In this document: piece by piece, positions 3,620-63,651 of the stretch | How the letters are laid out: each line of letters begins with the position of its first letter | How positions within the stretch are numbered: the first letter of the stretch is position 1 | Assembly (NCBI GenBank): GCA_964016885.1 | Contig: OZ024740.1 | Coordinates: 418,252,001-418,316,000 of the forward strand | Origin: Eledone cirrhosa | Lineage: Eukaryota | Reading direction: 5' to 3' | DNA length: 64,000 nucleotides | Program-made: the position numbers and the translations under genes | Notes under the pieces: generated by a model | The model's database searches: none | What the model was told of the DNA's origin: nothing | The model's input: the letters and a program-made list of their open reading frames with translations, nothing else

Positions 3620-3935
3620 TATATAAGATCAAAAGATGGTTAAATGAGTTCCATGTATTTTATTATGCGCATTTCAAAAACAAATATCATAATGCAATAA
3701 CATTTGCGTTTTCATCAGATAAAATAGGAGGACATGATATGAAGGTTAAAAACACTTGTGGATAGTGCAGTTTTAAATCAACAGTTTTTGAAATGCGCAC
3801 AATAAAATACATGGAACTCATTTAACCATCTTTTGATCTTATATATTATGTATACTCCAGTCCTACAAACTGTAGAGTGCTTCTTATCCGATATCTGCAT
3901 TGCTTTATTGTACTACAATAAAACTCACCATCTAC
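3620..3935. mobile_element. PLE terminal remnant: inverted copy (3620-3783) followed by a direct 3' end (3785-3935); same family as 57958-60783
   Basis: Near-identical to 57960-58122 and 60634-60783; internal inverted repeat. Confidence 0.85.
3658..3724 (-). ncRNA. Type I hammerhead ribozyme, family E
   Basis: Minus strand: UUUUAU-CUGAUGA-long stem II-GAAA-UGCGCA-UA^AUAAAA. Confidence 0.8.
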
Positions 3936-5015
3936 ATATATATCTATATATATAAAGGGAAGATGGACATTGTTTAGTGTACCGAACTTGCCTGCTACAC
4001 CGTTCATCCAATTTTCATGAAACCTCACACATATATAAAACTCAACGCGTAGAGTGGAATAGGCTACTTGAAATTTTCGAAAAATCGATAATCGGGCCCT
4101 ATGACAGAATGTTTTTCGATTCCAATGAAATTTTATGTGAATTCGAACACAAGAACTCTTAGTTTACATCTGGCGCAACAAAAATAAATTTCATATGCCC
4201 ATATAAGGACGTGCGTTATTGATTGGACGGCCAGCTGCATGTCTTCCCAGCTGTTTCAGTAAACGACCGACCATTAAAGAGTTTCTTTTCATATTCCACC
4301 TTATTCAAGTGGAAATACAATATTATCCCTATCTGAAAAGGGAACCAAATTTAATAGTGTCTTTTGTGAACCTAAAAGCTGTGAGTAAATTTTCAAACAG
4401 TCTTAAATAATCATGCTTTTTTGAAAAAAAAATTACTAAATTATACGTTGACCAAGTTGCGTTGTACACATACAATACAAGTAAAAACATTTACGTCGTA
4501 CCAATGTTTTCCTTTTTTAAACAAAAGATTCTAAAAAATTACTTAATTTATAATAGTCTTTTGCACAGGAAGTGAGTAACTTTTCGGGTGTTTAAACGTA
4601 AGTTCACCAGGGTTTGTGTCTTCATTATTAGCCCACCTCTAATGGCATTTTTTGTTCTGCTTACGACTAAATGTTATGAGCGTATTTGCAATTAATTGCG
4701 CACACGTGCACACCTGCATGCAGATAGACACTGACAGTCAATAAAAAATCCATAACTTGCTTATTAAGATATCGGTCAAAAAGAGAGATTGAATGTACTT
4801 TAGAACATTTTTTTAATATATTGTTCTTTTTTGCATGATATGTCAAAAATATAGCTACTATACACTTTGGTTATTTTTTGTAACTAAAAAACGTTTCCTT
4901 TTGGGTGGATACTTAACAAGAAAAATCCTAGGGTTTTGGACAAGTTTGTTTCAGGCGCTGTATAGACGCCTATTTTGTCACACCTTGGTCATGAATTCGT
5001 ATTCTTTTCCAATAG

Positions 5016-5270
5016 ATATTTTCCGCTCTATAAGGCTCACCAGGATATAAGGCGTATCATTTAAAATCAGGTCCGCGCAACGGCGTGTAAGGCCAACCAG
5101 AAAATGCTATCGTCTTTACTTTTAGTCTAGATCTATTACTTCTGTTAGAGCCGTGATTGATTACCATTGTATTATTTATACATAAGGCTCACCGGAGTAT
5201 AAAGCGCAGAGCTGTTTTTTGATTAAATTTAATTATTTTAAGTGCAATTTATAGACGGGAAAATTCGGTA
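5016..5270. mobile_element. Tc1/mariner(pogo)-type MITE nested in the Helitron
   Basis: Degenerate TIRs attttccgctctataa / ttatagacgggaaaattcggTA. Confidence 0.55.
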
Positions 5271-5392
5271 AGTTATTGTAATCATATTTTCAAACCTTCC
5301 CATTCACCAGTAACCATGCTAACGAATCTGGTGTCATCTCTCTCTGTATTTAATCACCTCTCTCTAACCTAACAGCTTCGTTACACGTCGTT

Positions 5393-5875
5393 ATGCCCAC
5401 ACGGAAACGTTCAAGACTTACCTCCAAAAAAGGTACAGCTATTGCTTTGAGACAACAAATTAGGCGTTCTCAGGTATGAGTTCATTCACAATTGATTAAT
5501 CCTTTATGCAATATTCTCCCTTAATGTTAGCAAGTACTGCGTTTATCCTAACTGTCACCACTTTTAAGCAACTACAACATTCTAATCGTAGTTATATTAA
5601 ATTTATTGTCTTACCTTGATTCCCTTTTGTTCATGTTAGACTTTTCTCATTTACTATTGACACTGCCATTGGCTTAGCTAACCAGTAGAATTAATTAATT
5701 TTCTCTAGGAAACACCTGCTGAGCGCGAATCTCGACTCGCTGATAGACGTCTTCCCCCGGCTGGTTGAGTCACCAACATCACGTACGACAAGGCTTGCTG
5801 ATGTTCGCCTTCGTCGCCAACAAGCGCTGACGGAGGAATCACCAACATCCCGTCAGACGAGGCTTGGGGCTGTGG
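5393..5875 (+). pseudogene. Spliced N-terminal remnant of a Helitron RepHel-like gene
   Basis: Exon 5393-5473 MPTRKRSRLTSKKGTAIALRQQIRRSQ, donor GTATGA, acceptor ttctctAG, exon from 5709 ETPAERESRLADRRL, then frameshifted ESPTSRTTRLAD and EESPTSRQTRL repeats. Confidence 0.6.
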
Positions 5876-6524: not shown

Positions 6525-6560
6525 CTTTTGAAAAGCATAAGAACTGCGAAACCGGTAAAG
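6525..6560 (+). ncRNA. Hammerhead-like ribozyme with U3-A8 variant core (family D), in a presumed PLE terminal remnant 6482-6680
   Basis: CUU-UUGAAAA-GCAu aagaa cUGC-GAAA-CCGG-UA^AAG; homologous to 34898-34933. Confidence 0.6.
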
Positions 6561-7631: not shown

Positions 7632-7715
7632 TGTATTTTCGAACATTACCGAACTTGAGGTCACTTGTGACTTGGTGATAACTCGTATGAACAGAAAGCA
7701 AAATCAAACAATAAT

Positions 7716-7903
7716 AATAATTATTTCTACTTTTGGCACAAGGCCAGCAAATTCCCCAGTACATTACTGGTACTTTATTTTATCGACCCCGTAAGGATGA
7801 AAGGCAAAGTTAACCTCAGCGGGATTTAAACTCAGATCATAAAGGGACGTAACTCCATGCTTCAAAGCATGGTGTCCGACTCTCTACCGATACTGCCAAT
7901 CCA
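7716..7903 (-). mobile_element. tRNA-derived SINE with Nin/Deu-like central domain
   Basis: Minus strand A-box tggcagtatcggt, B-box-like gagtttaaatccc, core gcctttcatccttacggggtcgataaaataaagtaccag. Confidence 0.85.
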
Positions 7904-8038
7904 CAATGGTTTCTGATTTAGGCCCAAGGTCAGCAATTTTGGGAAGAGGGGAAGTCAATTTAATCGACCCCAATGCATGACTGGTAATTTATCAACCTCG
8001 TAAGGATGAAAGGGAAAGCTAACCTTGGCGGGATTTAA

Positions 8039-9621: not shown

Positions 9622-11435
9622 CAGTGGCGTAACTAGGGATTTTGCGCCAGGGGGCAAGTTCGAACTTTGCATCCCTCGTCCAGCCCCAGGTAATTTAAAT
9701 GACACGAAAAAACATAATATATGATCTAAAATTACTTTTATAAAATTAATATGGAAAAAAGAGTAAAAAAATATTTACAAAGGGATGTTTCTAGCTTTAG
9801 CTGATGCAAATTAATCGATTATTTCATCAAAATTGGTTGCGTTTGTTTCTTCGCTTTCTATTCTGAGGATGGCAAGATCACGCAGACGGCTTTGAGACAT
9901 TGATGTCCGCAAATATGATAAGATGAGGTTGAGTTTGCTGAAGGATCTCTCACAGCTTGCGACGGAAACGGCCATTGTTAGCAGTATCAAATTCGGAAAT
10001 ACATTGTTGTCTCCGTATTAAACAATAACATTCAGGAGGTGTTCTGGTCTTGAGACTGAAACATTAGCGCGAGTTGACAACAACGCAGTCAACGATTTCT
10101 TCAAAAAGCTCCTTGCCGTTAATGTCAGCATTGTAGTGATCAGCTAATGAAGAGCACTTTGATCGAAGCGCGAGGTCGTCTGGAAAAGGTGGAAAGCACA
10201 GAGAGCAGACATCGAGGAGGAAGCCAAACCTCGCTCAATATCGTTGAGACGGGCGAATCGTAGCTGCATTTCTGATTGAATTCGAAGGAGAAGAGTTTGC
10301 ATGACTGTTTTTACTTCACTGGCTGGTGATAGTAATTCATCTTCAGAATTATCTGCAAGCTGCCGTCTTGGCCTTCCGCGACGTTTGCTGATGTCAATGT
10401 CCCAGCGTTGACTTAACTCAATGCCTTTATTAAGTGGTTGCTGGGCAATAGTACTTCCATTATCCGCGAAATACTGCTGGAGGGCTTTGATGTCATCAGC
10501 GGCATCCTGGAAGTTCATTGTTGGATCTTGAAGGCGTTTCTGAACCTGATCGATTCGAGCCAGAATCCTATTCCAAAATCCAAGCAACACGAAGAAGTGG
10601 AAGACAAGCATTTGGCTTAAAAGATGTTCTGCATCACTTCGTGTGTCGGATCTCTCCTCATTATCCTCTACCAACCTTTGCAGAAGCTCGAGGATTTTAT
10701 TCAGAAAGTTTGCAAGATGCTTTACAGCATCTGCTCTTGCGCTCCACCTGGTGTCCGATGAGGATTCAGAACGAAAGGGATTGCTTGCTTTAACTTTTCC
10801 CAACGCCGTGTTGATCGCGAAAAGAACGCAAACAATGACTCGATGACGTTGAAAAATGACATAACTTTGAAGCTACTCTTCGCTGCGGACAAACCAACGA
10901 GGTTAAGTGAATAGTTGTCACATTTAATATCGCCTTTTCGTTCAAATTCGTTATGCGTTGTTGAATCCCACTGGTGTGTCCGGCCATAACCGCAGCGTTG
11001 TCGTAACATTGTGCCTTGCAATCACTCAGCGCAAGGCCATCATCTTTCAATTCTTTCAAAATAAGTTCTACAGTACTGGCTGCATCTTTCTCTTCCAGTA
11101 GGGTGAACCCCAGAAAGAACTCTCGGATGCGAACGGTCCTTTTGTCGAAATCAACATCGACATACCTCACCACTCGTGACAGCTGGTCTCGATGAGCTTG
11201 ATCAGGAGATGAGTCCACCATCAGTGCATAATGACGAGCATTTTTTACGCATCGAAGAACATTCTTCTTGACGTTGAGAGCAAGTAGATGAAGAAATTCT
11301 TTAGAAAAGCTAAGTTATAGAGCACAAACAATTGATGGGCTAATGTTCATGCACAGTAAAAAAGAAAATAATTTAAGTCAACAATCTTGGTCAATTTTGC
11401 CCCCCCCCCCCCCCCCCCCTCAAAACGGCGCCGCT
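9622..11435 (-). mobile_element. Decayed hAT (Tip100/ZMYM1-like) DNA transposon
   Basis: Terminus CAGTGGCGTAACTAGGG at 9622; fragmented transposase; other end incomplete. Confidence 0.85.
9775..11300 (-). pseudogene. hAT transposase pseudogene (frameshifted, 5'-deleted)
   Basis: YALMVDSSPD, QCYDNAAVMAG, TRWSAR and C-terminal dimerization motif VSVASCERSFSKLNLILSYLRTSMSQSRL spread over several frames. Confidence 0.9.
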
Positions 11436-14136: not shown

Positions 14137-15633
<1,497 letters not shown>

Positions 15634-15833: not shown

Positions 15834-16291
15834 TATACAGAGTAAGTGAAGGTGGCGCCAATGTTTTCTCCTGCCTCCAACGATCTCCTATAAAATTTAA
15901 CCTCAACTTTCCAGAAGTCTCCGACCAGAATATTTCAGTTTCGACATGAATATCTTGAAGGAGCCATTAAAAGCAAAAACTGAAATTGCAGTATGCTGGC
16001 TGGCGGCTGCAGTACATACACAGCTATGCTTTAATCGGATGTGAACTTATGAATACATATCTCACCGTCGCCTCCATCTTTCTCTCTCACACACATGTGT
16101 AGGTGTGTATGTGTATGTGCGGTTCTCTAGCGAGTGTGTATTTGTATGTGTGTCGCCGTATAAGTCTACGCTCGTATGCATATGTGCATGAGAGTGCACT
16201 GCACGTGTGCTTGTATGAATGCAACTATCTGTACACACATACACATATATATAAATGCATCTATATCTTTATTATATAGAAAGATAGAAAT

Positions 16292-16337
16292 GACTTCTAC
16301 AGAGCTAGAACTATTTCATTCGTATGAAATCATCAGG
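16292..16337 (-). ncRNA. Hammerhead ribozyme, family A, within fold-back insertion 16284-16387
   Basis: CUGAUGA-uUUCauacGAAu-GAAA-UAG uucuagcu CUG-UA^GAAGUC; 5' strand of stem I truncated. Confidence 0.7.
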
Positions 16338-16562
16338 ATGATTTCATACTAATGAAATAGTTCTAGTTCTGTAGAAGTCATTTCTATATATATATATATA
16401 ATATATATATAACATATTATATATATAATATATATAACATATATATATATATATAATATATATAACATATATATATATAATATATATAACATATTATATA
16501 TATAATATATATAACATATTATATATATAATATATATAACATATATATATAATATATAAAAC

Positions 16563-16595
<33 letters not shown>

Positions 16596-22680: not shown

Positions 22681-23200
<520 letters not shown>

Positions 23201-23465
23201 GTACATATGTAAATATATGTGTGTGTATGTATGTATATATATATATATATATATTTCGTTTCTGAATTTGTTTAGCAAGATTCTTTATCTGAAAACGTGT
23301 GTTGAAACCGATATTGTTATACTTTGGGAGGGTCATGTTGCCAATAAGAAACACACGCACCAGTTGCTTTCACTTCAATTTATTATAAATTAAATTTATA
23401 AATTTAGGAATTTATAAATTTCCGGTTGATTGGTTGGTTCCACAACCAGATGATTGTTCATATAT

Positions 23466-23510
23466 TGTCAAAGTTCTTTCGTCACACATTCTGTGACCTC
23501 TTCGGTGACT
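23466..23510 (-). ncRNA. Mutated hammerhead, family B
   Basis: GUCA-CcGAAGA-gGUCAC..GUGAC-GAAA-GAAC-UU^UGAC. Confidence 0.6.
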
Positions 23511-23710
23511 GGGGATTCTTTTCTTTGTTTTTGAGCCTCTCCTTTGTTCTGTCCTACGCCATCTTGTTTTTGTCTGTGTTGTGTGCTTAGTTTGCGCATG
23601 TGTTACATCCGGGTGTCTGTGTGTGTTTATATTTGTTTATTTATTTGTTTATTTACATGTTACTGGTTGGTTGTTTGTTCTATGTGTGTGTGTGTGTTTT
23701 CATTTTGTCC

Positions 23711-24601
23711 TTAATTGTAAGTTGTGATGTTGCTGTTCCATTCATGTTTTCTATTTAATTTTGGTTGGAGTTCATTTATGTTTATTGCCTCTGTGATTTG
23801 TCTAAACATTGCGTCTTTTCTGTGTGTAGATTCTATTTTTATTTCTATGTTCTCTAATTTGCCCTTATGTTCTATTTTAGCATGTTGGTGGAGTATTGAT
23901 GATTCTTTTCTATCTTGAAGCTCTTGCCAGTGTTCATTTATCCGTTCCCCTATACTACGAGCTGTCTCACCTATGTACACTATATTCTTATCTCTACATT
24001 GTCCTTCAGTACATCTTATGCTATATACTACATTTCTAGTTTTACAGTTAATATGGGGGCTTAATTTACAGATTATACATTTCTTATCTATACAGGGAGG
24101 TCTTTGAAAAGGGTATGTATTGCTAATAAGTGTTTTTATGGAGGTACCTGGTCTTTCTACTATCTTAATATTGAGTTTATGTTTATCTAGGGCCCTTCTA
24201 AATTTGTAGGCTAATTCACCTCTAGAGGTTGTATCGATGAACATTACACTCTGGAATTTATTGCTATCATACCATGAGTTTATTCTATTAACCTTATTCC
24301 TAGTTCTTTCTATTCTATTCCAAAATTTGCTCCTATACAAGGGGCAGGTCCCATTTGTATCATTATTTACCATTTTTTCCCATTTGGTTCTGGCTCCTTT
24401 ATATACTCTGATTTTATCTCTCTGATTGTAACCAGAGAACTGCATACGGTGGATGAAGTGCTGTATGTGTCTCTCTAGTTCTTTGGCGTTGCACATGCGG
24501 GATACGTTTCTCATCACCCGTAACAAATCCGCAATCAGTATGTTGATTTTGGTGTGGTCCGAAACAACTGAGTTTCGGTGGATCAGATATTTGGAAGTCA
24601 T
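23711..24601 (-). CDS. PLE C-terminal fragment: RT thumb, Cys-rich linker and GIY-YIG endonuclease
   Basis: CIDKKCIIC...C, VVYSIRC...VYIGETARSIGERINEH, ITEAININELQPKLNRK. Confidence 0.88.
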   Translation of the reverse strand: MTSKYLIHRNSVVSDHTKINILIADLLRVMRNVSRMCNAKELERHIQHFIHRMQFSGYNQRDKIRVYKGARTKWEKMVNNDTNGTCPLYRSKFWNRIERTRNKVNRINSWYDSNKFQSVMFIDTTSRGELAYKFRRALDKHKLNIKIVERPGTSIKTLISNTYPFQRPPCIDKKCIICKLSPHINCKTRNVVYSIRCTEGQCRDKNIVYIGETARSIGERINEHWQELQDRKESSILHQHAKIEHKGKLENIEIKIESTHRKDAMFRQITEAININELQPKLNRKHEWNSNITTYN

Positions 24602-25656
24602 GGGTTTGGCATGGAATGGAGGATTTGTTTTTTGTTATTAATGGTATCTAACCAGAGCTCTGTGTTATTAATGGTATCTAACCAGAGCTCTGTGTCTAGA
24701 CTACTTAATCTAATTATTGCAGCTATATGACCATAAAATGGGTTATTATCGAAGTATTTCAACCTCTGTCATTTCCTCTTAAAGTAGATAGCTTCCAGTA
24801 AACCGAGCATATTATTTCATAATTGTTTACACAGTTAATATCTTTAAAATACTCTATATGCAATACAAATAGCAATAAGGTTATAATTATATCTCTCGGC
24901 ATATTTTCAACATATCTTCTTTGCAAGTTTTTATCGATAGAAAATTTAAAGTGATTCTCATAAAATGATAAAACCAAGATCTTCAGAGACGAAAAGAAAT
25001 TTAGCAATAATTTGATTGGGTTACGATACAAATGATATTCTGTTTTATATTAATATCTTAGCAGTCCTCTATCTCACCCAATTTCTTCTTCCTCTTCTTG
25101 TACGATGAGACTGGGTCATCCTAGGTGAGTGATCCCAGAGGCATTATCGTGCGTAGAGCTTTTTCTGGCCTTGTGGTAGGTGGAGGGGGGGGGGAGTGTG
25201 TGTTTCGTAAATCTGGGAGATCGTTACCGTCTAGAGCTTTGCTTTTGGTAGGGCCACATTAGGCGGGCCGGTCTCTCTTGAAGTTCCAGACCAAAGGTGA
25301 CCTACGACGCGTCAGTTCGCCGCAAAGATGGCTGCCCCATCATCCGACTTTTCTGAGGGGAGCCAACAACCCGCCCAGAAAAAAAAACAATATCAATCTG
25401 TTAGGAAAACACCAAACCACACACTTCTTTTGTTTTTCTTTATTGTTTTATGGCTTCCGACTTATTGAGAAATTAATTGAAGTCGTAACTGAGATGCTTA
25501 GATGTGAAGATGAAATAACAATTAGTGAGAGGATTTAACTATAAATGGACAACGTCAATAATGGCGAAGAAAAGCAATATTTTTGTAAATAATGAGAAAG
25601 AGAAGAGTAATATCGTGAATTCCTAGTAATTAGAAATAACAGAGTTCATGTATAAT

Positions 25657-26798: not shown

Positions 26799-26799
26799 T

Positions 26800-28833: not shown

Positions 28834-29049
28834 TTTCGTTTCTGAATTTGTTTAGCAAGATTCTTTATCTGAAATCGTGTGTTGAAACCGATATTGTTAC
28901 ACTTTGGGAGGGTCATGCTGCCAATAAGAAACACACGCACCAGTTGCTTTCACTTCAATTTAATTTATTAAATATTTATAAATTTACAAATTTATAAATT
29001 TCTGGTTGGTTGGTTGGTTCCACAACCAGATAGTTGTTTATATATATAT

Positions 29050-29094
29050 AGTCATAGTTCTTTCGTCACACACTATGTGACCTCTTCAGTGACT
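29050..29094 (-). ncRNA. Type I minimal hammerhead ribozyme, family B (3' pLTR)
   Basis: AGUCA-CUGAAGA-gGUCAC..GUGAC-GAAA-GAAC-UA^UGACU. Confidence 0.8.
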
Positions 29095-29399
29095 GGGGAT
29101 TTCTTTCTTCGTTTCTGTGCCTTTCCTTTCTTCTATCCTACGCCATTTTGTTTGTGTGTGGGTTGCGTGCTCAGTTTGCGCATGCGCCACATCCGGGTGT
29201 CTGTGTGTGTTTGTGTTCATTTTTCTATTTTTCTATTTATATTTTTCTATTTGTTTGTTTATTTATTTATTTATTGTTGGTTGGTTGTTTGTTCTATGTG
29301 TGTGTGTGTTTTCATTTTGTCTTGTGTGTGTTTTCATTTTGTGTGTGTTTTCAATTGTAAGTTGTTTGTTCTATGTGTGTGTGTGTTTTCATTTTGTCC

Positions 29400-32300
29400 T
29401 TAATTGTAAGTTGTGATGTTGCTGTTCCACTCATATTTTCTATTTAATTTTGGTTTTAATTCTTTTATGCTTACTGCCTCTGTAATTTGCCTAAACATTG
29501 CGTCTTTCTTGTGTGTGGATTCTATTTTTATTTCTATGCTCTCTAATTTACCCCTGTGTTCTATCTTAGCATGTTGGTAGAGCACAGATGATTCTTTACT
29601 ATCTTGGAGGTCTCGCCAGTGTTCATTTATTCGTTCCCTATACTACGAGCTGTCTCACCTATGTACACTACATTTTTGTTTCTACATTGTCCTTCAGTAC
29701 ATCTTATGCTATATACTACATTTCTAGTTTTACAGTTAATATGGGGGCTTATTTTACAGGTTATACATTTCTTATCTATACATGAGGGTCTTTGGAACGG
29801 GTATGTCTTGCTAATAAGTGTTTTTACGGAGGTACCAGGTCTTTCTACTATCTTAATATTGAGATTATGTTTCTTTAGGGCCCTTCTAAATTTGTAGGCT
29901 AGTTCGCCTCTAGGGGTTGTATTGATGAACATTACACTCTGGTATTTATTGCTATCATACCATGAGTTTATTCTATTGGCCTTGTTCTTAGTTCTTTCTA
30001 TTCTATTCCAAAATTTGCTCCTATACAAGGGGCAGGTCCCATTTATGTCATTATTTACCATTTTTTCCCATTCGGTTCTGGCTCCTTTATACACTCTGAT
30101 TCTATCTCTCTGATTGTAGCCAGAGAACTGCATACGGTGGATGAAGTGTTGTATGTGTCTCTCTAGTTCTTCGGGGTTGCACATGCGGGACACATTTCTC
30201 ATCACCCGTACCAAATCCGCAATCAGTATGTTGATTTTGGTATGGTCCGAAATGGCCGAGTTTCGGTGGATCAGATGTTTGGAAGTCATGGGTTTGGCAT
30301 AATGGGAATGGAGGATTTGTTTTTGGTTGTTAATAGTATCTAACCAGAGCTCTGTGTCTAGTACAGGTAATCGATGGTTGGGGTGTCTACTTGGGTAGTC
30401 TATAGTAACTCTAATGCTCTGGTGGATGGAGTTTGCTATTTGCTGGATGCTTTCCATTGTGTTTTTCTCTAGTTCCTGACTGTTCTTTAGTGGGGGTGTC
30501 TTAACTACGATGTTTATATCATCTACGTAGCGGGAGTACATTATCAGGGTTAAGCTGTCTTCTAATTGTTCATTAAGTTTTTGTTTAAGTCTACTGTCCC
30601 ACCATACCATGAATAAGTTAGCTATGTCGCCTGCAATGCTAACACCAATGGCTGCTCCTTCCTCTTGGGCATATGTTTTACCATTAAATTTGAACCTATG
30701 TTCCTTAAGGGTTAGTTTTATGCTGGCCCCTACCGCATGTGCAATCATTTTCTTCAGTTCATCGTGGTTTTCGGGTGTCCGTATGGCTCTGGTCCACCCG
30801 TTCCATCTATCTGTGTGGGTTTTCTTGGCCATAGAGGTAATGGTAGGTGGTCTGCCTCTTGCTGGTCTTGTAGGGCACAGGTTGCTAAGGTCATAAGTGT
30901 CTAGGTAACTATTACTATGGGTAAGCTTAAGTAGAAGTCCCAGCTCACTGGTATCAATCCCACGGAACTCAACCTTGCTCTCGCTGATCATTTCGACGCA
31001 TTTCTCCACAGCAAAATCCACGTCAATAGATGGATACAGGGACACAACATCCATACTGCCTATTATGCAGTTTGTTAGGTCCCCAGATCGGTTACCCGCG
31101 CCGATTCTGCTGAGGAGGTCCTCCGTGCTGTCACACACATCTGGGGACATCTCAATGATGGGGCGTATGATCAGGGAGAGGAAGTAGGACAGTCTGTAGT
31201 TACTAGCAATGTTAGCCCCACAGACTGGCCGTGTTGGTGGTCCCGCGACAGGGTCCCAGCCCGTTTTATGGTCTTTACGAAGCCCATACAACGCCGGCAC
31301 GTCATTGTTCCAGGCCTGGAAGTTGTTGGCAGTCCTTTTGTTGGGCTGCATTATATTTGTCCACATCACCATATGGGCATTGAGGGTTTTTTCTCTATCC
31401 TCATGCTCCTGTGGTGTTACCTCTCTTGTGTTAGTGATGTGGGGTTGCATTGCCTGGATGTAGTTTGGCAGGCTGTCAACCGACATTCTGCCAGACTTGT
31501 CTGTTGGAAAGCATGCTATCTCTCCATTACGCGAGCGCTGCATGAGCTTACGCAAGCCATTTGCAGATTCTTCTCCCAGTTGCTGGGCCTCTATTCTATT
31601 ATACTTCTTGCTATACTGTTCTATAATATTTCTAAGTTCGGATTTAGCTATACTAAATTGTGCCTCTGTTTGTTCATCGACCTGCGACGGCAACTGCGTG
31701 CGTTTGTTAAATGGCAAAGTCGTGGCGTGGACTCGTCGTAGGTCGAATGATTTATCGGAGGGGTTATAAAACGGAGAGTTCCAGGCTGCTGCTTTATATG
31801 TACTAGTGCTATTGTTATTGTTAGTTGTGTTGTTTCTATTTCCACCAACAGCAGCAGCCTCAGCTTCATGGTTGTTTCTATGTCTCTCATAATTACTCCT
31901 GTCTTTTTCCACTGGCTCAATGTTGTTATCTACCCTATTTTGTGTGTCTGTGTGTTCGTCTTGGTTATTCTCTTTGTCCTTAGTCTCCCATCTCCTTTTC
32001 CTTTTCCTTTTAATCCTATTACTTTCTCTTATTTCTCTGATTTCTGTGCTACTGTCATTACTTGTTTTCTGTGTCTGTGTGTTTGTTAAGATTGTGGTGA
32101 GAGGCATTGAATGCGTGTGTGTTGTTGTTGTTGATGTGTGTTGTTGTTGATGTGTGTTGTTGTTGTCTCCGTGTGTGTGTGTGTTATCGTTGTTGTGTGT
32201 GTTGTTATTGTTGTTTGTGTTTGCGTGTCTGTTGTTGTTGTATCTGGGTATGTTGCTATTGTTGTTGTTGTTGATGTGTGTGTTGTTGTTATTCTTGTCT

Positions 32301-33220
32301 CCGTGTGTGTTGTTATTGTTGTTTGTGTCTGCGTGTCTGTTGTATCTGGGTATGTTGCTATTGTTGTTGTTGTATCTGGGTATGTTGCTATTGTTGTTGT
32401 TATTGTTGTTTGTGTCTGTGTGTCTGTTGTTGTTGGGATGTGTGTTGTATATGTGTGTGCGTATATTGTTGCTTTTGTTTTTGTTTTTGATGCTCCAGCG
32501 TAGTTTCGTAAATGATTTTTCTATTTCTGACAGACAACTAATCATATTTACCTTCTTGAATGTCGCAAATTTGGGTGGCAGACGTAACACAGACATTTCA
32601 TTATTATCTATTTCCGTGTTTCCATAGATGTTGGTATTTTCATTGTTGAACTCTTCAGATAATGAGGTGTCGGCCATGTTGATACCGTCAATTTTGTCGG
32701 GATATCTATTGGTATACTCTATAGTATCCCGATTTAGCTTTGCCTGTTTAAGCCACTTTAATTTTCTGTTAAAGTGCTTATTACATTCTTGAGTAATGTA
32801 CTGTTCTTCGGGGCGTATAAGGCTTATAAATGTTAGTTTTTCTGCTGGTGTGGTGATTTTAGATATTTCATCTATTAGGTTACGCTTTAGTTTTTCGTGA
32901 TGACTTAATTCTCTATAGATCTTCTTTTTTATGTTTAGAATTAAAGTTCGTTTTAGCCTATCTGCTTGTTTTTTGGTGAGTTGTAATCTTCTAACGTCGG
33001 TATTGATGGTGTTGGTGTAGATTCTAGAAGTGGTGCACAGTTTTATGAAGTGTAGTTGTCGAGATGTTATGGTTTTTCGTAGACAACAGAACATGGTGGT
33101 TTTCAGTATCTTGTTAGCCTGGCTAAGGCTTACGATATTTCGTTTCTGAATTTGTTTAGCAAGATTCTTTATCTGAAATCGTGTGTTGAAACCGATATTG
33201 TTACACTTTGGGAGGGTCAT
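29400..33220 (-). CDS. PLE polyprotein: reverse transcriptase plus C-terminal GIY-YIG endonuclease; one 1-nt frameshift near 29636
   Basis: FPTDKSG, LYGLRKDHK, TRPVCGA, SMDVVSLYPSI, GAAIG, YSRYVDD, LPVLD, YIGET; the C-terminus continues in ORF 29400-29585. Confidence 0.93.
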
Positions 33221-33353
33221 GCTGCCAATAAGAAACACACGCACCAGTTGCTTTCACTTCAATTTAATTTATTAAATATTTATAAATTTACAAATTTATA
33301 AATTTCTGGTTGGTTGGTTGGTTCCACAACCAGATAGTTGTTTATATATATAT

Positions 33354-33398
33354 AGTCATAGTTCTTTCGTCACACACACTGTGACCTCTTCAGTGACT
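33354..33398 (-). ncRNA. Type I minimal hammerhead ribozyme, family B (5' pLTR)
   Basis: Same fold as 29050-29094; differences only in the distal stem II/loop. Confidence 0.8.
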
Positions 33399-33782
33399 GG
33401 GGATTTCTTTCTTCGTTTCTGTGCCTTTCCTTTCTTCTATCCTACGCCATTTTGTTTGTGTGTGGGTTGCGTGCTCAGTTTGCGCATGCGCGTGTCTGTG
33501 TGTGTTTGTGTTCATTTTTCTATTTTTCTATTTATATTTTTCTATTTGTTTGTTTATTTATTTATTTATTGTTGGTTGGTTGTTTGTTCTATGTGTGTGT
33601 GTGTTTTCATTTTGTCTTGTGTGTGTTTTCATTTTGTGTGTGTTTTCAATTGTAAGTTGTTTGTTCTATGTGTGTGTGTGTTTTCATTTTGTCCTTAATT
33701 GTAAGTTGTGATGTTGCTGTTCCACTCATATTTTCTATTTAATTTTGGTTTTAATTCTTTTATGCTTACTGCCTCTGTAATT

Positions 33783-34760
<978 letters not shown>

Positions 34761-34897: not shown

Positions 34898-34933
34898 CTC
34901 TACCGGTTTCGCAGTTCTTCTGCTTTTCAAAAG
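34898..34933 (-). ncRNA. Hammerhead-like ribozyme with U3-A8 core (family D), in a presumed PLE-end remnant ~34760-34975
   Basis: CUU-UUGAAAA-GCAG aagaa CUGC-GAAA-CCGG-UA^GAG. Confidence 0.65.
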
Positions 34934-39671: not shown

Positions 39672-39715
39672 GGCTTCTACAGGACTAGAACTGTTTCATT
39701 CGAAAGAAATCATCA
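39672..39715 (-). ncRNA. Hammerhead family A remnant, truncated at the core
   Basis: UGAUGA-uUUCuuucGAAu-GAAA-CAG uucuaguc CUG-UA^GAAGCC next to (TA)n. Confidence 0.65.
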
Positions 39716-40361
39716 TAATATTGAGAGGGGGGACTAGATAAAATATTTCAAATCAAATGTGTATAAGTTATAAGTTAAAATGTATAAATAGAGACGATAG
39801 TGGAGGTATATCTGTTTAGTGGAACAGTAGACGATAGAATTAAATACAGACGATAATCTCCCTTTAATGAAACAGCAGACGATAGAATTAAGGCAATTTA
39901 AATTTTAAGCATTTGCATTTTTGTCTTTCATCGTTACGGGGTCGATAAAATAAAGTACCAGTAATACACTGTCACTAGACGACTTTCAAATTGAATTGTT
40001 GGTTCCATTTCTTTAGTATTTTCAATTGTAGTTATCTACTTAAAAAGCGTTACACGGTTAGAGACATAATTCGTAAGTTATATCTTCCCTATTAAACCAT
40101 TGCATTATTTCGCCTACAATAGAACAAAAATGAAATGTTCTTTAAAGAAACAGGAATATAACTTTATAAAAAAAAAAGTTGCATCCGCTTCTTTTATCAT
40201 TGATAATTTTTTCGTTTTAATATTAATTGTTTTTTGTAGTTGTTTATATTAAAAATCTTACTGTAATATTTACTTAAACGAAGGCAAACATCTAAACTTA
40301 TAGATTAATCTTGAGCGAAGGACTAGATAAATCTCTCTCTCTCTCTCTCTCCCTCTCTCTT

Positions 40362-42650: not shown

Positions 42651-42701
42651 AGTTTAAGCAAAGAATCGCTGCTTTCACCCTTAACGGGATCTTCTGAAAC
42701 T
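42651..42701 (-). ncRNA. Hammerhead family C (CAGAAGA core) as a solo ~75-bp insertion in (TA)n
   Basis: Identical to 60852-60902 and to the reverse complement of 63601-63651. Confidence 0.7.
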
Positions 42702-50258: not shown

Positions 50259-50270
50259 ATATATAGAAAA

Positions 50271-50364
50271 GCTTCTACAGGACTAGAACTGTTTCATTCA
50301 GGAGAAATCACCAGGAAGCCCTGATGATTTCTCCTGAATGAAACAGTTCTAGTCCTGTAGAAGC
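50271..50364. ncRNA. Back-to-back pair of family A hammerheads (minus 50271-50319, plus 50321-50364)
   Basis: Minus: GCUUC-CUGGUGA-uUUCuccuGAAu-GAAA-CAG uucuaguc CUG-UA^GAAGC; the plus copy has an intact CUGAUGA but lacks the stem I 5' strand. Confidence 0.8.
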
Positions 50365-50448
50365 TTTTCTATATTAAATATTTATACTCTGCTTTGTATT
50401 GAGTACCTTACTTACTGTGGTTACCCCTGATTGAACCCGGAATAAACT

Positions 50449-50492
<44 letters not shown>

Positions 50493-56589: not shown

Positions 56590-57450
56590 AGAGAGATAGT
56601 CAATGTAGATATCTATATATGTAGAGAGAGATATCCAATGTAGATATCTATATATGTATAGAGAGATATCCAATGTAGATATCTATATATGTATAGAGAG
56701 ATATCCAATGTAGATATCTATATATGTAGAGAGAGATATCCAATGTAGATATCTATATATGTATAGAGAGATATCCAATGTAGATATCTATATATGTAGA
56801 GAGAGATATCCAATGTAGATATCTATATATGTAGAGAGAGATATCCAATGTAGATATCTATATATGTAGAGAGAGATATCCAATGTAGATATCTATATAT
56901 GTAGAGAGAGATATCCAATGTAGATATCTATATATGTAGAGAGAGATATCCAATGTAGATATCTATATATGTAGAGAGAGATAGTCAATGTAGATATCTA
57001 TATATGTAAAGAGAGATAGTCAATGTAGATATCTATATATGTAGAGAGAGATATCCAATGTAGATATCTATATATGTATAGAGAGATATCCAATGTAGAT
57101 ATCTATATATGTATAGAGAGATATCCAATGTAGATATCTATATATGTAGAGAGAGATATCCAATGTAGATATCTATATATGTATAGAGAGATATCCAATG
57201 TAGATATCTATATATGTAGAGAGAGATATCCAATGTAGATATCTATATATGTAGAGAGAGATATCCAATGTAGATATCTATATATGTATAGAGAGATATC
57301 CAATGTAGATATCTATATATGTATAGAGAGATATCCAATGTAGATATCTATATATGTAGAGAGAGATATCCAATGTAGATATCTATATATGTAGAGAGAG
57401 ATATCCAATGTAGATATCTATATATGTATAGAGAGATATCCAACGTAGAT
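56590..57450. repeat. 35-bp minisatellite, ~24 copies
   Basis: Unit caatgtagatatctatatatgtagagagagatatc. Confidence 0.95.
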
Positions 57451-57874
57451 ATTTATATGGTGAATATAGATATGAAATGTGTGCACGAATAATGAAGAGT
57501 TTTGTTTGTGAGTGTGTATGGTGTGTGTTGTGTGTGGTGTGTGTGTGTATGGTGTGTGTGATGTGTGTATGTGTCTGGTGTGTGTGTGTGTCTGTGTATG
57601 GTGTGAGTGTGTATGGTGTGTGTGTGTGTGTGCGTGTCTGTGTGTATATGTGTCGATGCGACAGCATGTGCTTGTGTATGTTGTGTGTGTTCTTTTATGT
57701 TTGTGTGTGTGTGTGTGTAGGTGCGACAATATGTGCTTGTGTGTGTGTGTGTATGTGTGTGTGGATGCGACAATATGTGCATGCACATGTATGTGTGAGT
57801 GAGTGTATGCAACAATATGTACGTGTGTATGTATGTGATAGAAAGTGTGTGTTATAAAGACACCCTCTATAAGA

Positions 57875-57964
<90 letters not shown>

Positions 57965-57996
57965 AGATCAAAAGATGGTTAAAGGAGTTCCATATA

Positions 57997-58063
57997 TTTT
58001 ATTATGCGCATTTCAAAAACAAACATCATCAAGCAATAATATTTGTGTTTTCATCAGATAAAA
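57997..58063 (-). ncRNA. Hammerhead family E (inverted copy)
   Basis: Reverse complement of 60591-60657. Confidence 0.8.
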
Positions 58064-60590
58064 CAGGAGAACATGATATGAAGGCTAAAAAAACACTTGT
58101 TGATAGTGCAGTTTTAAATCAACATATGAAAAGTGGTTTTAGATTGATGTGTGATATTGGGAAAAATATTTTATTTAGAGAGGGGGGGGGAGGATGAAAA
58201 GGGAAGGAGATGAGAGGGAGAGATGGGTGATAGAGAGAAAGAGATAGTTTTTATAACTGAGAGGAGATATATTTTTTACATAGAGGGGTTGAAAACCGTT
58301 GGAAGATACTCTATAAATTAAAAATTTTGAAAATTAACGAAGGGAGGATATGTGCGAGGAAAAAATATCTTATTTAGGGAGGGTGGGGTGGAAAGGATGA
58401 AAAAAAGGGGGGAGGAGATGAGAGTGAAGGTGGAGAGGGAGAGATGGGTGATAGAGAGAAAGAGATAGTTTTTATAACTGAGAAAAAGATATATTGTTTT
58501 AATATAGAGAGGTTGGGAACCGTTGGAAGATAATGTATAAATTAAAGGAATTTGAAAATTAACGAAGGGAAATTATGTATGAAGATAGAGAGAAAAAAAT
58601 AATAATTGTGGGTGAATATTCTAACGTCAAAAGAAGAAATGTATGTATTGTGGCAATTTCAAAATTAGCGAAGAGAAAAATTGTTAAGGTAGAAGGATTT
58701 GAGAAGTGTTGAAGGATTTGAGAAAAATAATGTGAAGTTAAAGTTTGTATATTGAATTGATATGTATTAATAATGAGTTCGTTGATGGGGAGAAAAAAAT
58801 AATAATAAATTAAGGATGAAATTGAGATTAAAAAGATTTATGATAGAGAGAAAAAATAATAATGATTGCGGATGAATATTCAAAATGTCAAAAACAAATG
58901 TTATTATTTTACGAGAAGATAGAATGAGGGTAATGAGTAAACAAGTATTATAGAATGTATAATGCCCTTTAAAGTAAGGTAGATGGGTATATTTTAAAGA
59001 GGTGTATGTATATGTGCCTTTGAGAAAAGATTCTAAATTGATAAAGAATTGAATATTAACTGTATACTTTGTGAAAAGTTCTATGGAATTTATGCAGGCA
59101 GATAGAAAACAAATCTGAGCGTCTATTTATTATAGATTCTAGGTTAGAGATAATGGTAAATTTTTCATTTAGGCAGAGATTACAGATTTTAGATAGAGAG
59201 CTGTTCAAGTATGAGGATGCAGAAGAAATCTTTTTCCAAAAGATGTTATATTTAATGTTTTTGTCTTTTAAGGACCATATGAGTTCTGAGAGAGCAGTGT
59301 TAGTTCTTTTAAGTTTGTATTTGAAAGATGAAATACAAACTTAAAAGAACTAACACTGCTCTCTCAGAACTCATATGGTCCTTAAAAGACAAAAACATTA
59401 AATATAACATCTTTTGGAAAAAGATTTCTTCTGCATCCTCATACTTGAACAGCTCTCTATCTAAAATCTGTAATCTCTGCCTAAATGAAAAATTTACCAT
59501 TATCTCTAACCTAGAATCTATAATAAATAGACGCTCAGATTTGTTTTCTATCTGCCTGCATAAATTCCATAGAACTTTTCACAAAGTATACAGTTAATAT
59601 TCAATTCTTTATCAATTTAGAATCTTTTCTCAAAGGCACATATACATACACCTCTTTAAAATATACCCATCTACCTTACTTTAAAGGGCATTATACATTC
59701 TATAATACTTGTTTACTCATTACCCTCATTCTATCTTCTCGTAAAATAATAACATTTGTTTTTGACATTTTGAATATTCATCCGCAATCATTATTATTTT
59801 TTCTCTCTATCATAAATCTTTTTAATCTCAATTTCATCCTTAATTTATTATTATTTTTTTCTCCCCATCAACGAACTCATTATTAATACATATCAATTCA
59901 ATATACAAACTTTAACTTCACATTATTTTTCTCAAATCCTTCTACACTTCTCAAATCCTTCTACCTTAACAATTTTTCTCTTCGCTAATTTTGAAATTGC
60001 CACAATACATACATTTCTTCTTTTGACGTTAGAATATTCACCCACAATTATTATTTTTTTCTCTCTATCTTCATACATAATTTCCCTTCGTTAATTTTCA
60101 AATTCCTTTAATTTATACATTATCTTCCAACAGTTCCCAACCTCTCTATATTAAAACAATATATCTTTTTCTCAGTTATAAAAACTATCTCTTTCTCTCT
60201 ATCACCCATCTCTCCCTCTCCACCTTCACTCTCATCTCCTCCCCCCTTTTTTTCATCCTTTCCACCCCACCCTCCCTAAATAAGATATTTTTTCCTCGCA
60301 CATATCCTCCCTTCGTTAATTTTCAAAATTTTTAATTTATACAGTATCTTCCAACGGTTTTCAACCCCTCTATGTAAAAAATATATCTCCTCTCAGTTAT
60401 AAAAACTATCTCTTTCTCTCTATCACCCATCTCTCCCTCTCATCTCCTTCCCTTTTCATCCTCCCCCCCCCCTCTCTAAATAAAATATTTTTCCCAATAT
60501 CACACATCAATCTAAAACCACTTTTCATATGTTGATTTAAAACTGCACTATCAACAAGTGTTTTTTTAGCCTTCATATCATGTTCTCCTG

Positions 60591-60657
60591 TTTTATCTGA
60601 TGAAAACACAAATATTATTGCTTGATGATGTTTGTTTTTGAAATGCGCATAATAAAA
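60591..60657 (+). ncRNA. Type I hammerhead ribozyme, family E
   Basis: UUUUAU-CUGAUGA-long stem II-GAAA-UGCGCA-UA^AUAAAA; palindromic stem III AUGCGCAU. Confidence 0.85.
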
Positions 60658-60780
60658 TATATGGAACTCCTTTAACCATCTTTTGATCTTATATTATGCA
60701 TACTCCAGTCCCACAAACTGTAGAGTGCTTCTTATCCGATATCTGCATTGCTTTATTGTACTACAATAAAACTCACCTCC

Positions 60781-60835
<55 letters not shown>

Positions 60836-60851
60836 TAAAATAACAGATTAA

Positions 60852-60902
60852 AGTTTAAGCAAAGAATCGCTGCTTTCACCCTTAACGGGATCTTCTGAAA
60901 CT
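60852..60902 (-). ncRNA. Hammerhead family C (inverted pLTR copy)
   Basis: AGUUU-CAGAAGA-uCCC..GGGu-GAAA-GCA..UGC-UU^AAACU. Confidence 0.7.
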
Positions 60903-61069
60903 AACAAAGTCAATCTGTAAACGCAGAACTGGATATTTCAAAAAACGTTGCAACCGGAGGAAGACAGGAAGACGATACTTTGGTTCGTGGTAACGTTCGC
61001 TGGCAAAGAACGGGAAAAAACGAATAATACGTCATTAATAGGACCCTATCTCTGGACCCTATCTCTCCC

Positions 61070-62671
61070 CACTTTACCCTGAAGGATCACAAATCCAATT
61101 TTCCGAACAACCCCTCTATTCGGCTTATTAACCCTACGAAGTCCGATTTAGGTAGACTTAGTAAAACGATTCTTGATAGAATTATACCCGAAATTAGAAG
61201 TTTGACCCCTCTCGCACTGTGGAACAATTCTTTCGCGGTGATTGATTGGTTCAACGGCATATGTAACAAGGAACATTGCCGTTTTATCCAATTCGACATC
61301 AACAATTACTACTCCTCCATCACTTTACCACTTCTCCTTAGAGCTATCAATTTCGCTAAAACACTCACAGTGGTTAAGGATTTTGAAGTTGATGTCATCC
61401 TTAATGCCCGAAAGTCGGTGATTAATTTCGACGACTCTATTTGGATTAAAAAATCCAATAGTACCCCATTCGACGTGAGTATGGGCGCCAGTGACTCTGC
61501 GGAGGTTACTGATCTTATTGGCCTTTTCCTTCTTTTCTCTATCAAGGACGAATTCCCCAACGCGGGCGGTGGTTTGTACCGTGACGATGGTCTTTTGACC
61601 ATGACTAAGTGCGGACCTCGTGCTTGCGACAGGTTCAGAAAAGAACTCACAGCCTTCTTTAAAGGCTTCAACCTCTCTATACAGGTTGAGGCCAATCTCT
61701 CGGTCGTTAATTACCTCGACGTTACCCTCAATTTATTGAATGGGTTGTATTACCCGTATAGAAAGCCGAATGATACGCTTAATTACATAAGTAAGCATTC
61801 CAACCATCCTGCCAGCATAACCAAGAACCTGGTAAGAAACGTTTCGTTGAGGCTTTCCCGTCTTTCCACCAACGAGCGCATTTTCAACGACCATTCCACT
61901 TATTACAATGAAGCTCTTGCTCGAAGTGGATTTGTCGATAAGGTAGCATATACAGAGTACAAAAATAGACCTAGAAGAAATAGATCCCGTCGCATTTGTT
62001 GGTTTAACCCACCATATAATATGGAGGTGGCCACACCATTAGCTAAGATCTTTCTTTCCCTTATTACGAAGCATTTTCCCCCTACACATAAATATAGTAA
62101 AATTTTTAATAGAAATACTATTAAAATTTCTTACTCTACGACTCCTAGCCTTGCACATAACATCACAGCTTCAAATTTAGCTAAACTACCTAGCCGTAGG
62201 AACACGTGCAACACTGTAGTTAGTACTAACTGTAATTGTAGGAATCGGGCTGATTGCCCCCTATCCGGGAAATGCCTCTCTAGTAACATTGTCTACAAAT
62301 GTAAGGTTGTAACACCCACGTCCCGTAGGGCCTACATAGGGTTAACCGCCAATAGTTTCAAGCAGCGTCTTTACATGCATACCCATTCTTTTCGTTACCC
62401 TCTAAGAAGGAATATGACGTCACTTTCAGCTTATATCTGGAGTCTAAAAGACAACCACACCCAATATAAGTTACACTGGGAGATCCTAGCTAGGGCTAGA
62501 TCGTACAACGGAAATAAAAGACCATGTGACCTCTGCGCCGCTGAGGCCCTGGAAATACTCTACGCTACAGACCACATCTTAAACAAAAAATCTGAGGCAA
62601 TTTCGGCTTGTAAACATAAATTGCACAAAACTTTCCTGTATTACAGCCCCACGTTATACCCTAACGGATAG
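61070..62671 (+). CDS. PLE reverse transcriptase plus GIY-YIG endonuclease (N-terminally truncated, otherwise open)
   Basis: FTLKDHK, IRLINP, QFDINNYYSSI, DVSMG, LYRDDGL, NYLDV, WFNPPY, CNCR..CPLSGKC, IVYKC..YIGLT. Confidence 0.92.
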   Translation, partial: HFTLKDHKSNFPNNPSIRLINPTKSDLGRLSKTILDRIIPEIRSLTPLALWNNSFAVIDWFNGICNKEHCRFIQFDINNYYSSITLPLLLRAINFAKTLTVVKDFEVDVILNARKSVINFDDSIWIKKSNSTPFDVSMGASDSAEVTDLIGLFLLFSIKDEFPNAGGGLYRDDGLLTMTKCGPRACDRFRKELTAFFKGFNLSIQVEANLSVVNYLDVTLNLLNGLYYPYRKPNDTLNYISKHSNHPASITKNLVRNVSLRLSRLSTNERIFNDHSTYYNEALARSGFVDKVAYTEYKNRPRRNRSRRICWFNPPYNMEVATPLAKIFLSLITKHFPPTHKYSKIFNRNTIKISYSTTPSLAHNITASNLAKLPSRRNTCNTVVSTNCNCRNRADCPLSGKCLSSNIVYKCKVVTPTSRRAYIGLTANSFKQRLYMHTHSFRYPLRRNMTSLSAYIWSLKDNHTQYKLHWEILARARSYNGNKRPCDLCAAEALEILYATDHILNKKSEAISACKHKLHKTFLYYSPTLYPNG

Positions 62672-63600
62672 CACGATCTATACGTGGATATTTTACGTCT
62701 TGAAGTGGGAGCTAAGTATATGTTTTGTCTATTCCTTTACTTATTTGCATAGGTAAGTATATATTACCCGTATGTTTTGTGATGGTATGTATACCTTCTC
62801 GTACGTATATTTGACTGTTATAGCGTATGATTTTTACATATTCTGGTATTTAGGGTTTGGCTATGTGTATACGGGAGTTTTGCGTCCGCGTGAGTGTGCA
62901 AGTTCGTACGTATGGTGGGTGTGTGTATATGTGTACTTCTTGTTTTAGTTGACTTACGTCTCCGAACATTTGTGTATTTATATGTAGGTATGCGTGTGCG
63001 CTTGTTATATACGTATTTATTTACTTATATACGTTTATATAATTATTTATTTATTTGTACACAAGCATACACACACACACATATTTATATGTGCGTGGTT
63101 TTGTATACCCATGGTAAGGTTTTGCGTATGCTTGTGTATGTACGTATCTGTTTGCGTGTATGTATTTATTTGTTTCTATTACTTCTGTATTGTATTTATT
63201 TACTTTGTTCTTAACTCTGTAGCGGAGATTCATTTGGTCTCCTAGTTAGAATTTTAGTCTACGATTTCTGCTATACCATTTACGTGGTTTTGTCTTTGCG
63301 TGCTATTGTTCTCCACGCTCCACATATGACTTATTATCGTCGTTTTTTCGTTCATTGCCAGAGAACGTCTCTATGCACCACCTAAGAGAACATTAGTCTA
63401 CGACCTCTTTTATACCATAAACGTGGTTTTGTCTTTGCGCGTAATTGTTTTTCACCGCTCCTATTAATGACGTATTATTCGTTTTTTTCCCGTTCTTTGC
63501 CAGCGAACGTTACCACGAACCAAAGTATCGTCTTCCTGTCTTCCTCCGGTTGCAACGTTTTTTGAAATATCCAGTTCTGCGTTTACAGATTGACTTTGCT

Positions 63601-63651
63601 AGTTTCAGAAGATCCCGTTAAGGGTGAAAGCAGCGATTCTTTGCTTAAACT
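63601..63651 (+). ncRNA. Type I hammerhead ribozyme with CAGAAGA variant core, family C
   Basis: Stem I AGUUU/AAACU, stem II CCC/GGG, stem III AGCA/UGCU, triplet CUU. Confidence 0.72.

Follow-up and report, generated by a model that had tools for sequence, protein, structure and literature searches.

Hammerhead ribozymes of Penelope-like elements (PLEs), their diversity within single genomes and the retrozymes have all been published, and many divergent hammerhead families per animal genome were already described by Cervera and de la Pena in 2014 (PMC4209133). The counts on record include about 9,000 hammerheads in Xenopus tropicalis and 4,000 in the coelacanth (PMC4209133), about 2,000 plus 1,300 minimal motifs in Schistosoma, 235 Rfam hammerhead matches in the giant squid, and 16 families with more than 6,000 motifs in a coral and 126,247 motifs in the axolotl (PMC7229834). 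Here we followed up an earlier note on a window of 64,000 nucleotides (nt), the whole stretch analysed, from the 3.0-Gb genome of Eledone cirrhosa (contig OZ024740.1, positions 418,252,001 to 418,316,000), which is rich in (TA)n and in fragments of long interspersed nuclear elements (LINEs). The motifs of the window are very probably type I hammerheads lying in the terminal repeats of several PLE families; they are likely to cut the transcripts of source elements, and most copies are likely inert. The system is thus of a known kind, and what is new is its scale, a family with a U4A core and a retrozyme-like element called G. Our direct observations concern the folds, the link of families A to E to PLE endonuclease open reading frames (ORFs), the copy numbers and the anatomy of the insertions; self-cleavage at H17 is predicted from the motifs.

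The window was searched with a type I descriptor that allowed at most one deviation in the core and demanded a stem II of at least three Watson-Crick pairs, a helix III, a NUH site and a stem I of at least three pairs (positions follow the hammerhead numbering). It returned 16 matches, against 0.95 ± 0.84 per shuffle (maximum 3) in 40 local dinucleotide shuffles of the window, and restriction to a canonical core and a stem I of at least 4 base pairs (bp) left 7 matches against 0.025. The matches at 58612, 60041 and 61595, in which positions 3-8 do not pair, are probably due to chance. At the gathering threshold, Rfam gave no match in the window; it gave no hammerhead over the G motif at E ≤ 10, and none of the best 150 of 317 weak-score rows was a hammerhead. 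The weak matches were microsatellite and hairpin artefacts. As standard Rfam annotation misses all the motifs of the window, the ribozymes of such genomes are probably greatly undercounted.

Complete type I folds, with three helices and an open stem I, were obtained for 11 of the 15 copies listed by the earlier note (three each of families B, C and E, and two of D), and for two families, F (23047-23077, plus strand) and G (3150-3079, minus strand), which its list had missed. That note had counted 14 full or near-full copies; motifs do occur where it placed them, but its list holds 15 and no A copy is complete. The core C3U4G5A6N7G8A9...G12A13A14 with A15.1-U16.1 and H17 is unaltered in 7 of the 15 listed copies; it is canonical in two copies of B, three of E, F and G. 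Family D has the U3-A8 core variant, and native A copies elsewhere in the genome also carry the core. The helices differ in sequence between families and the fold is the same. Short palindromic helices III occur in D, E and most short-helix clusters; the exceptions are B and F, with a 2-nt non-palindromic centre, and A, C and G, with longer helices.

Family B provides the most complete element:

28834..33783, minus strand: B PLE arranged pLTR-ORF-pLTR (pLTR, pseudo-long terminal repeat), with a Neptune-type CX4CxxC linker
29627..33253, minus strand: B ORF, 1,208 codons from stop to stop, with YVDD and YIG motifs
29050..29094, minus strand: B hammerhead of the downstream pLTR, intact, site 29055
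33354..33398, minus strand: B hammerhead of the upstream pLTR, intact, site 33359
23254..24665, minus strand: 5′-truncated B PLE (endonuclease end and pLTR), with a hammerhead at 23467-23509 carrying U4C and a CUU site

The minus-strand copies at 29089 and 33393 are complete and intact, and the one at 23505 is complete with U4C. The upstream site lies 139 nt before the first Met codon and 4,304 nt from the other site; cleavage at both would yield a unit of 4,304 nt that begins 139 nt ahead of that codon. The frame 29627..33253 stops soon after YIG, earlier than that of the 23.7-kb copy.

Families C, D, E and F are represented by the following features:

60831..63760, plus strand: C PLE with inverted pLTR, 5′-truncated ORF (61028-62671), 3′ untranslated region, pLTR and tail
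60852..60902, minus strand: C hammerhead in the inverted pLTR
63601..63651, plus strand: C hammerhead in the sense pLTR, with U4A, U-U at 10.1/11.1 and CUU site 63646
42651..42701, minus strand: C hammerhead in a solo truncated end, U4A core
6525..6560, plus strand: D hammerhead (core 6528), U3-A8 core, 6-nt palindromic helix III, 3-bp stem I
34898..34933, minus strand: D hammerhead (core 34930), U3-A8 core
3656..3726, minus strand: E hammerhead (core 3718), intact, palindromic helix III, site 3664
57960..60784, both strands: E insertion, a 2,735-bp palindrome (arms 99.5% alike) with a tail of about 90 nt
57995..58065, minus strand: E hammerhead of the left arm (core 58057), intact
60589..60659, plus strand: E hammerhead of the right arm (core 60597), intact
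23043..23081, plus strand: F hammerhead (motif 23047-23077), old copy

The E hammerheads at 58057 and 60597 are the two arms of one palindrome, not independent copies. The third sits in a small palindromic insertion (3619-3846) with a tail to about 3936. Over 250-320 nt, about 68-70% of the F sequence agrees with a repeat found in many other loci.

These hammerheads lie at constant distances downstream of PLE ORFs in the same sense, namely about 440-550 nt for B, 935 nt for C, 1,080-1,500 nt for D and 1,000-1,070 nt for E, which bears out the placement of the motifs in PLE termini. Reverse transcriptase (RT) plus a GIY-YIG endonuclease at the C terminus, combined in one ORF with a pLTR hammerhead downstream, were found for B and C in the window, for D in locus L031, and for A in several loci, L344 among them. 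The parent elements of A and D, presumed by the earlier note to be PLEs, were thus located outside the window. In L031 an inverted D end is followed by an RT-endonuclease remnant and, 1,080 nt downstream, by the D hammerhead, an arrangement repeated in four further loci (L014, L023, L127 and L140). Coding sequence had been announced in the window for B, C and E; it is there for B and C, and E retains only the last ~90 endonuclease codons, a remnant with CxxC and CxH at the centre of the large palindrome (59325-59597, plus strand, with its mirror copy). The C ORF, with a Hydra-type CxCX5C linker and with CxxC and CxH around the conserved E and N, resembles RT plus GIY-YIG protein clusters; the nearest of these come from eukaryotes, and in their few records Mollusca, Porifera or Arthropoda are the most frequent. 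By the motifs of Craig et al. 2021, the A-linked ORF, C and E would be Hydra-type and B and D, which share the CX4CxxC linker, Neptune-type, although a CX2-5CxxC linker before GIY-YIG is also common to Nematis and Naiad. The five families are therefore unrelated in DNA, as had been claimed, but not in protein, those of A, C and E being all Hydra-type. A palindromic insertion of the D 3′ end without hammerhead was also seen at 27497-27590.

None of the four listed copies of family A in the window is complete:

3520..3545, minus strand: A 3′ scrap without core
16287..16384, both strands: A palindromic insertion with its junction at the core and stem I absent in both arms
39672..39716, minus strand: dead A fragment, lacking C3 and stem I, embedded in a young repeat of another kind (more than 2 kb)
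50261..50449, both strands: A palindromic insertion (50261-50374) with a one-sided tail, forming a single long hairpin of −92 kcal/mol

The plus-strand copy at 50321 has an intact core, with an inversion junction in place of the 5′ strand of stem I; its minus-strand partner at 50314 has stem I and A6G in the core. The copy at 16336 (minus) is without stem I, and that at 39672, without C3 and stem I, is carried inside a different repeat; the flanks of this copy recur in 8 of 30 loci, the identity being 95-99% along 1-1.8 kb. That young repeat (39400-41500 and beyond, more than 2 kb) is 95-99% alike in at least nine other loci and adjoins an inverted pair (41506-41724 and 42256-42474).

Elsewhere in the genome A is, to judge from its sequence, a true hammerhead family. 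Copies whose native upstream sequence survives have a fold with a GUA site, closed by a stem I of 5 bp, and in one subfamily both sides of one stem I pair are changed (five contexts), none being mixed among the 14 commonest combinations shown. In an alignment of 63 copies (60 picked by eye from 88 candidates, and three added copies of the subfamily), 94% of the cells pair and the covariation score was reached by 1 of 500 shuffles. Substitutions fall in loop II as the earlier note had described, this loop being variable in 27-52% of 134 contexts against at most 9% in the other columns; the observation is descriptive, and part of the variation looks like CpG decay. Most copies are cut at or near stem I, and an inverted partner arm was present at 21 of 40 places.

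The parent of A was sought with an endonuclease fragment taken from upstream of one A copy. Among 30 matches, a sense A copy lay within 1.5 kb downstream in four, at inconsistent distances and with the query itself as one of them, and an inverted A copy lay upstream in eight. Fourteen loci, picked partly because such links existed, were extended to 10 kb; an inverted A end stood upstream of a 5′-truncated PLE ORF in 8 of the 14, directly abutting it in five. In L344 the ORF has A ends on both sides, and in L113 the A-linked ORF is degenerate and shows the Hydra-type C-terminal CxxC/CxH pattern. The link of A to a PLE ORF is good, though the sense 3′ end is seldom seen. In the window the A copies form palindromes of 100-115 bp, nearly perfect and bordered by TA, as a miniature inverted-repeat transposable element (MITE) of a DNA transposon with TA target duplication would be, and chance motifs might arise in AT-rich DNA. 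We consider both explanations ruled out: the one-sided tail, the variable junctions, the non-palindromic native upstream sequence and the PLE link argue against a MITE, and chance is opposed by shuffles that yield about one match or none and by reversed-pattern controls that yield none.

Several observations weigh against the assignment of the motifs to active hammerheads of PLE termini. Pfam gave no match for the B and C ORFs. The hammerhead is the minimum-energy fold in G only, and the monomeric folds of D and F lie 10 kcal/mol above their minima, which fits a dependence on dimers or inactivity. Covariation within families, the check proposed by the earlier note, is thin: the result for A (1 of 500) is inflated by relatedness and by the choice of rows by eye, and for E the pair-shuffle test was not significant (60 of 500). 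All recurrent changes in E do keep pairing, as the note had stated, but the loop-closing pair of the 3718 copy is broken. The C source carries U4A and a CUU site. Finally, in PAc, the one PLE tested in vitro, hammerhead mutants left insertion unaffected (PMC11167929).

The last two points bear on whether the motif of C and A is a non-catalytic relic, retained as a structure or as a protein-binding site. No unaltered core was found in family C, in which U4A is fixed: the plus-strand copy at 63606 and the minus-strand copies at 60897 and 42696 are all complete with U4A and a CUU site, and the source sequence has U4A in 50 of 64 contexts and U4 in two, the latter being the reading that inversion junctions create. 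The C fold, with a stem II of 3 bp and U-U at 10.1/11.1, lies 2 kcal/mol above the minimum, A is complete in just 2 of 30 position-ordered copies, and cleavage is dispensable for insertion in vitro (PMC11167929); U4A and CUU may make C weak or dead. However, the core is otherwise preserved, as are all three stems, in A a stem I substitution is matched by a compensating one, and U10.1-U11.1 is a known active natural variant (PMC3088659; axolotl HHR_Amex2, PMC7229834). We consider the relic explanation unlikely and a ribozyme function in source transcripts the more probable one for these families.

The element G differs in having no coding partner:

2939..3437, minus strand: G insertion with a (TA)n run on either side; retrozyme-like, without an ORF, its 5′ piece inverted
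3072..3157, minus strand: G hammerhead (motif 3150-3079), canonical core, GUC site 3079

Its stems are of 7 bp (I), 4 bp with a long insert (II) and 8 bp (III), and the hammerhead is its minimum-energy fold. Elsewhere the monomer occurs in tandem with a period of 450-472 nt. In 7 of 33 copies the sequence 3′ of the hammerhead is found again 459-473 nt away on its 5′ side, same-strand marker pairs 449-472 nt apart were found at four loci among the first 100 listed, and L363/L364 hold at least four units head to tail. The L037 monomer measures 471 nt from site to site, with 34% GC, a longest stop-free frame of 66 codons and a circular fold of −123.7 kcal/mol (−88.8 ± 5.8 in 30 shuffles). The monomer shows no similarity to any of the elements B to E. 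At 30 loci, which represent 26 separate places, the centre motif was intact in 11, and an inverted G piece stood upstream at 12 places; 15 of 28 mapped 3′ ends lay at +159-163 or +241-243, mostly running into TA, the others being scattered. We infer that G is probably a non-LTR retrozyme inserted by a PLE protein; the monomer would likely self-cleave, circularise and borrow that protein.

G could instead be the pLTR of an autonomous PLE, its arrays having arisen by local duplication with no circular RNA step. A 2026 preprint proposes local amplification of PLE ends (10.64898/2026.07.22.740005), the G arrays are short (2-4 units seen) and partly decayed, which speaks against a retrozyme, and in L364 the descriptor is passed by one of at least four direct units. 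Yet no sense PLE ORF ended just upstream of G in 30 position-ordered loci, the only sense match upstream lying more than 1,100 nt away (L384), and the recurrence of the 3′ sequence 5′ of the hammerhead, the head-to-tail units at at least four separate loci, the short frames and the strong circular fold also argue against this origin, to which we give a rather low probability. The retrozyme interpretation of G is preferred. G was also considered as the 5′ ribozyme of a neighbouring RTE-type LINE fragment and rejected, as a TA run separates the two and G also occurs independently. On another contig (about 25.70 Mb; L351:580-4700), at least 14 units stand head to tail with a period of exactly 310 nt; the type I hammerhead is identical in all of them and has a palindromic helix III and a GUA site. 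From its sequence organisation, this locus qualifies as a classical non-LTR retrozyme array.

The ends of the insertions were then mapped from the cleavage site. For C, 19 of 30 3′ ends lay at +27-29 and 11 beyond +117; for E, 12 of 30 lay at +43-46 and 16 beyond +134. Nearly all run into TA repeats, and the two end classes are about 90 nt apart. An inverted 3′ copy was present within 1.5 kb upstream at 15 of 30 E loci and 11 of 30 C loci (the corresponding counts for A, 1 of 30, and G, 4 of 30, were probe artefacts and were discarded). With inverted 5′-truncated copies, a one-sided tail and (TA)n targets, the C and E insertions follow the published PLE pattern with a longer tail. The E motif is complete in 28 of 30 copies. 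A stalling of reverse transcription by the hammerhead fold at stem I, where the A and C junctions pile up, was rejected because E passes stem I; short local palindromes at each hot spot, judged by eye, explain the A and C junctions. As a separate observation, the 2.7-kb near-perfect palindrome at 57960-60694 is of a kind common among E and C insertions, and read-through transcripts of such insertions would form long double-stranded RNA.

Published work on PLEs, applied to these data, suggests the following course of events. Transcription would pass through tandem pLTRs, and cleavage would occur in dimers formed via the palindromic helix III or with the aid of the element's protein. The PLE protein would nick (TA)n, and reverse transcription would begin at two internal sites 3′ of the hammerhead, which would account for the one-sided tail. 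Insertion would use uncleaved RNA; copies run through the cleavage site, so that the template was uncleaved or re-ligated there. With 30-50 nt (about 160 nt in G) between the hammerhead and the 3′ end, the motif is present in even the shortest insertions, hence its density. Palindromic insertions lock it in a hairpin, so that many copies are unable to fold, and the motifs would cut only the transcripts of active source elements.

The scale of the repertoire was estimated from a blind sample of 59 ten-kb stretches at round coordinates on 23 long contigs (590 kb), which contained 29 strict motifs (canonical core, stem I of at least 4 bp) against none in each of six shuffles. The density of 49 per Mb corresponds to about 1.5×10^5 motifs genome-wide (bootstrap 0.86-2.2×10^5), both arms of inverted insertions being counted; the window, with 7 strict motifs, has about twice the genome average (p = 0.04). 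The axolotl genome is about ten times larger, and Lunse, Weinberg and Breaker reportedly found about 150,000 motifs over many genomes in 2017. Exact markers of 18-24 bases, which count 3′ pieces and not whole motifs, occurred 23,728 times for E, 33,092 for C, 14,860 for A and 960 for G, with none for the reversed controls. In 354 loci and the window (overlaps kept), 369 matches formed 43 clusters, 34 of them with an intact core; the clustering cut-offs were set arbitrarily, and a small number of singletons are due to chance or should be merged. The blind sample contained 19 of the clusters, one probably chance, i.e. at least 18 families. The inner helix III, a hallmark of dimers when self-complementary, is so in 23 of 28 cases across clusters (p about 2×10^−8 against 0.3), a property not demanded by the descriptor; the count was 29 of 34 before six demanded pairs were dropped. 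U3-A8 covariation was present in 7 of 34 clusters and a 1×1 mismatch at 10.1/11.1 in 16. The large and diverse repertoire expected by the earlier note is thus supported. It is conceivable, though we would still doubt it, that this is the densest animal hammerhead repertoire reported (about 50 per Mb, more than 30 families), arising from a burst of Hydra and Neptune PLEs and including an active natural U4A family of tens of thousands of copies and a retrozyme, G, whose insertion scars would directly reveal the mobilisation of animal retrozymes by PLE proteins.

A repertoire serving the host, for instance in transcript processing, would agree with the very high number and with the completeness of E. 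It is very improbable, as intactness tracks youth (the arms of the large E palindrome being 99.5% alike), private changes strike cores and stems alike, and many copies are held in perfect hairpins. The PLE origin given above is retained.

Other features of the window and its border were as follows. Just beyond the right end, an inverted hammerhead pair belongs to yet another family (L310:162-260). Broken non-LTR LINEs with AP endonuclease and RT domains (Pfam) lie at 16770-20697 (plus) and 43607-45335 (minus), and a transposase remnant with DUF4371 (Pfam), which we take to be probably hAT-type, at 10144-11314 (minus). A dispersed repeat of about 190 nt and SINE-like size (short interspersed nuclear element) at 7712-7904 is 80-95% alike in at least 10 other places and recurs at e.g. 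21300, 25652, 43059, 52439 and 54682. A 35-nt tandem array occupies 56433-57572 and a CAA/CAC-rich minisatellite 1-1845.

Dozens of young families in one genome constitute a natural library of variants (U4A, U3-A8, 10.1/11.1 mismatches, helix III of 2-9 bp), and G makes the proposed partnership of PLEs and retrozymes testable, since its copies bear a PLE tail and inversion marks. Neither a cephalopod hammerhead survey nor a report of U4A was found in the literature covered, which excludes subscription journals, and this taxon or U4A variants may appear in supplements to the papers of 2014, 2017 and 2021.

Compared with the minimal PLE hammerheads of PMC4209133, the motifs described here are alike in their type I topology, short palindromic helix III, unpaired base before stem II and U3-A8 variant, and in occurring as many families per genome, mostly as solo truncated copies with pairs on opposite strands. 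They differ in number (about 1.5×10^5 against ~9,000 in Xenopus tropicalis and 4,000 in the coelacanth, a rough comparison as the published counts rest on other descriptors), in the frequent mismatch at 10.1/11.1 where G10.1-C11.1 is highly conserved in that set, and in the fixed U4A of family C. With the endonuclease-bearing PLEs of Craig et al. 2021 (PMC8557442) they share (TA)n insertion, inverted 5′-truncated copies, the one-sided tail and hammerheads; C agrees with the Hydra clade in CxCX5C, CxxC and CxH, E and the A-linked ORF agree in the C-terminal pattern, and B and D match Neptune-type elements in CX4CxxC. Tails are of about 80-90 nt here and 30-40 bp there, and the Hydra clade, described with few families outside cnidarians (PMC8557442), is represented here by three Hydra-type families with 15,000-33,000 marker matches each. 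G and the L351 array resemble non-LTR retrozymes (PMC7229834; 10.64898/2026.07.22.740005) as ORF-free, low-GC tandem monomers with one hammerhead per unit and, for G, strong self-pairing. At 450-472 nt the G monomer reaches or exceeds the upper limit of the published range (150-450 nt); it has an 8-bp helix III, stands mostly as about one unit and shows the marks of PLE insertion, namely TA targets, an inverted 5′ piece and 3′ ends of two classes. Li, Clavereau and Pollet argue for the partnership from co-occurrence and pLTR similarity, and the word 'tail' is absent from the available text of their preprint (10.64898/2026.07.22.740005). In the PAc Poseidon element studied in vitro (Frangieh et al. 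2024, PMC11167929) the hammerhead overlaps the start codon, whereas the B site lies upstream of its first Met codon; as proposed here, two RT start sites define the tail, the RNA template is unprocessed and the targets are AT-rich.

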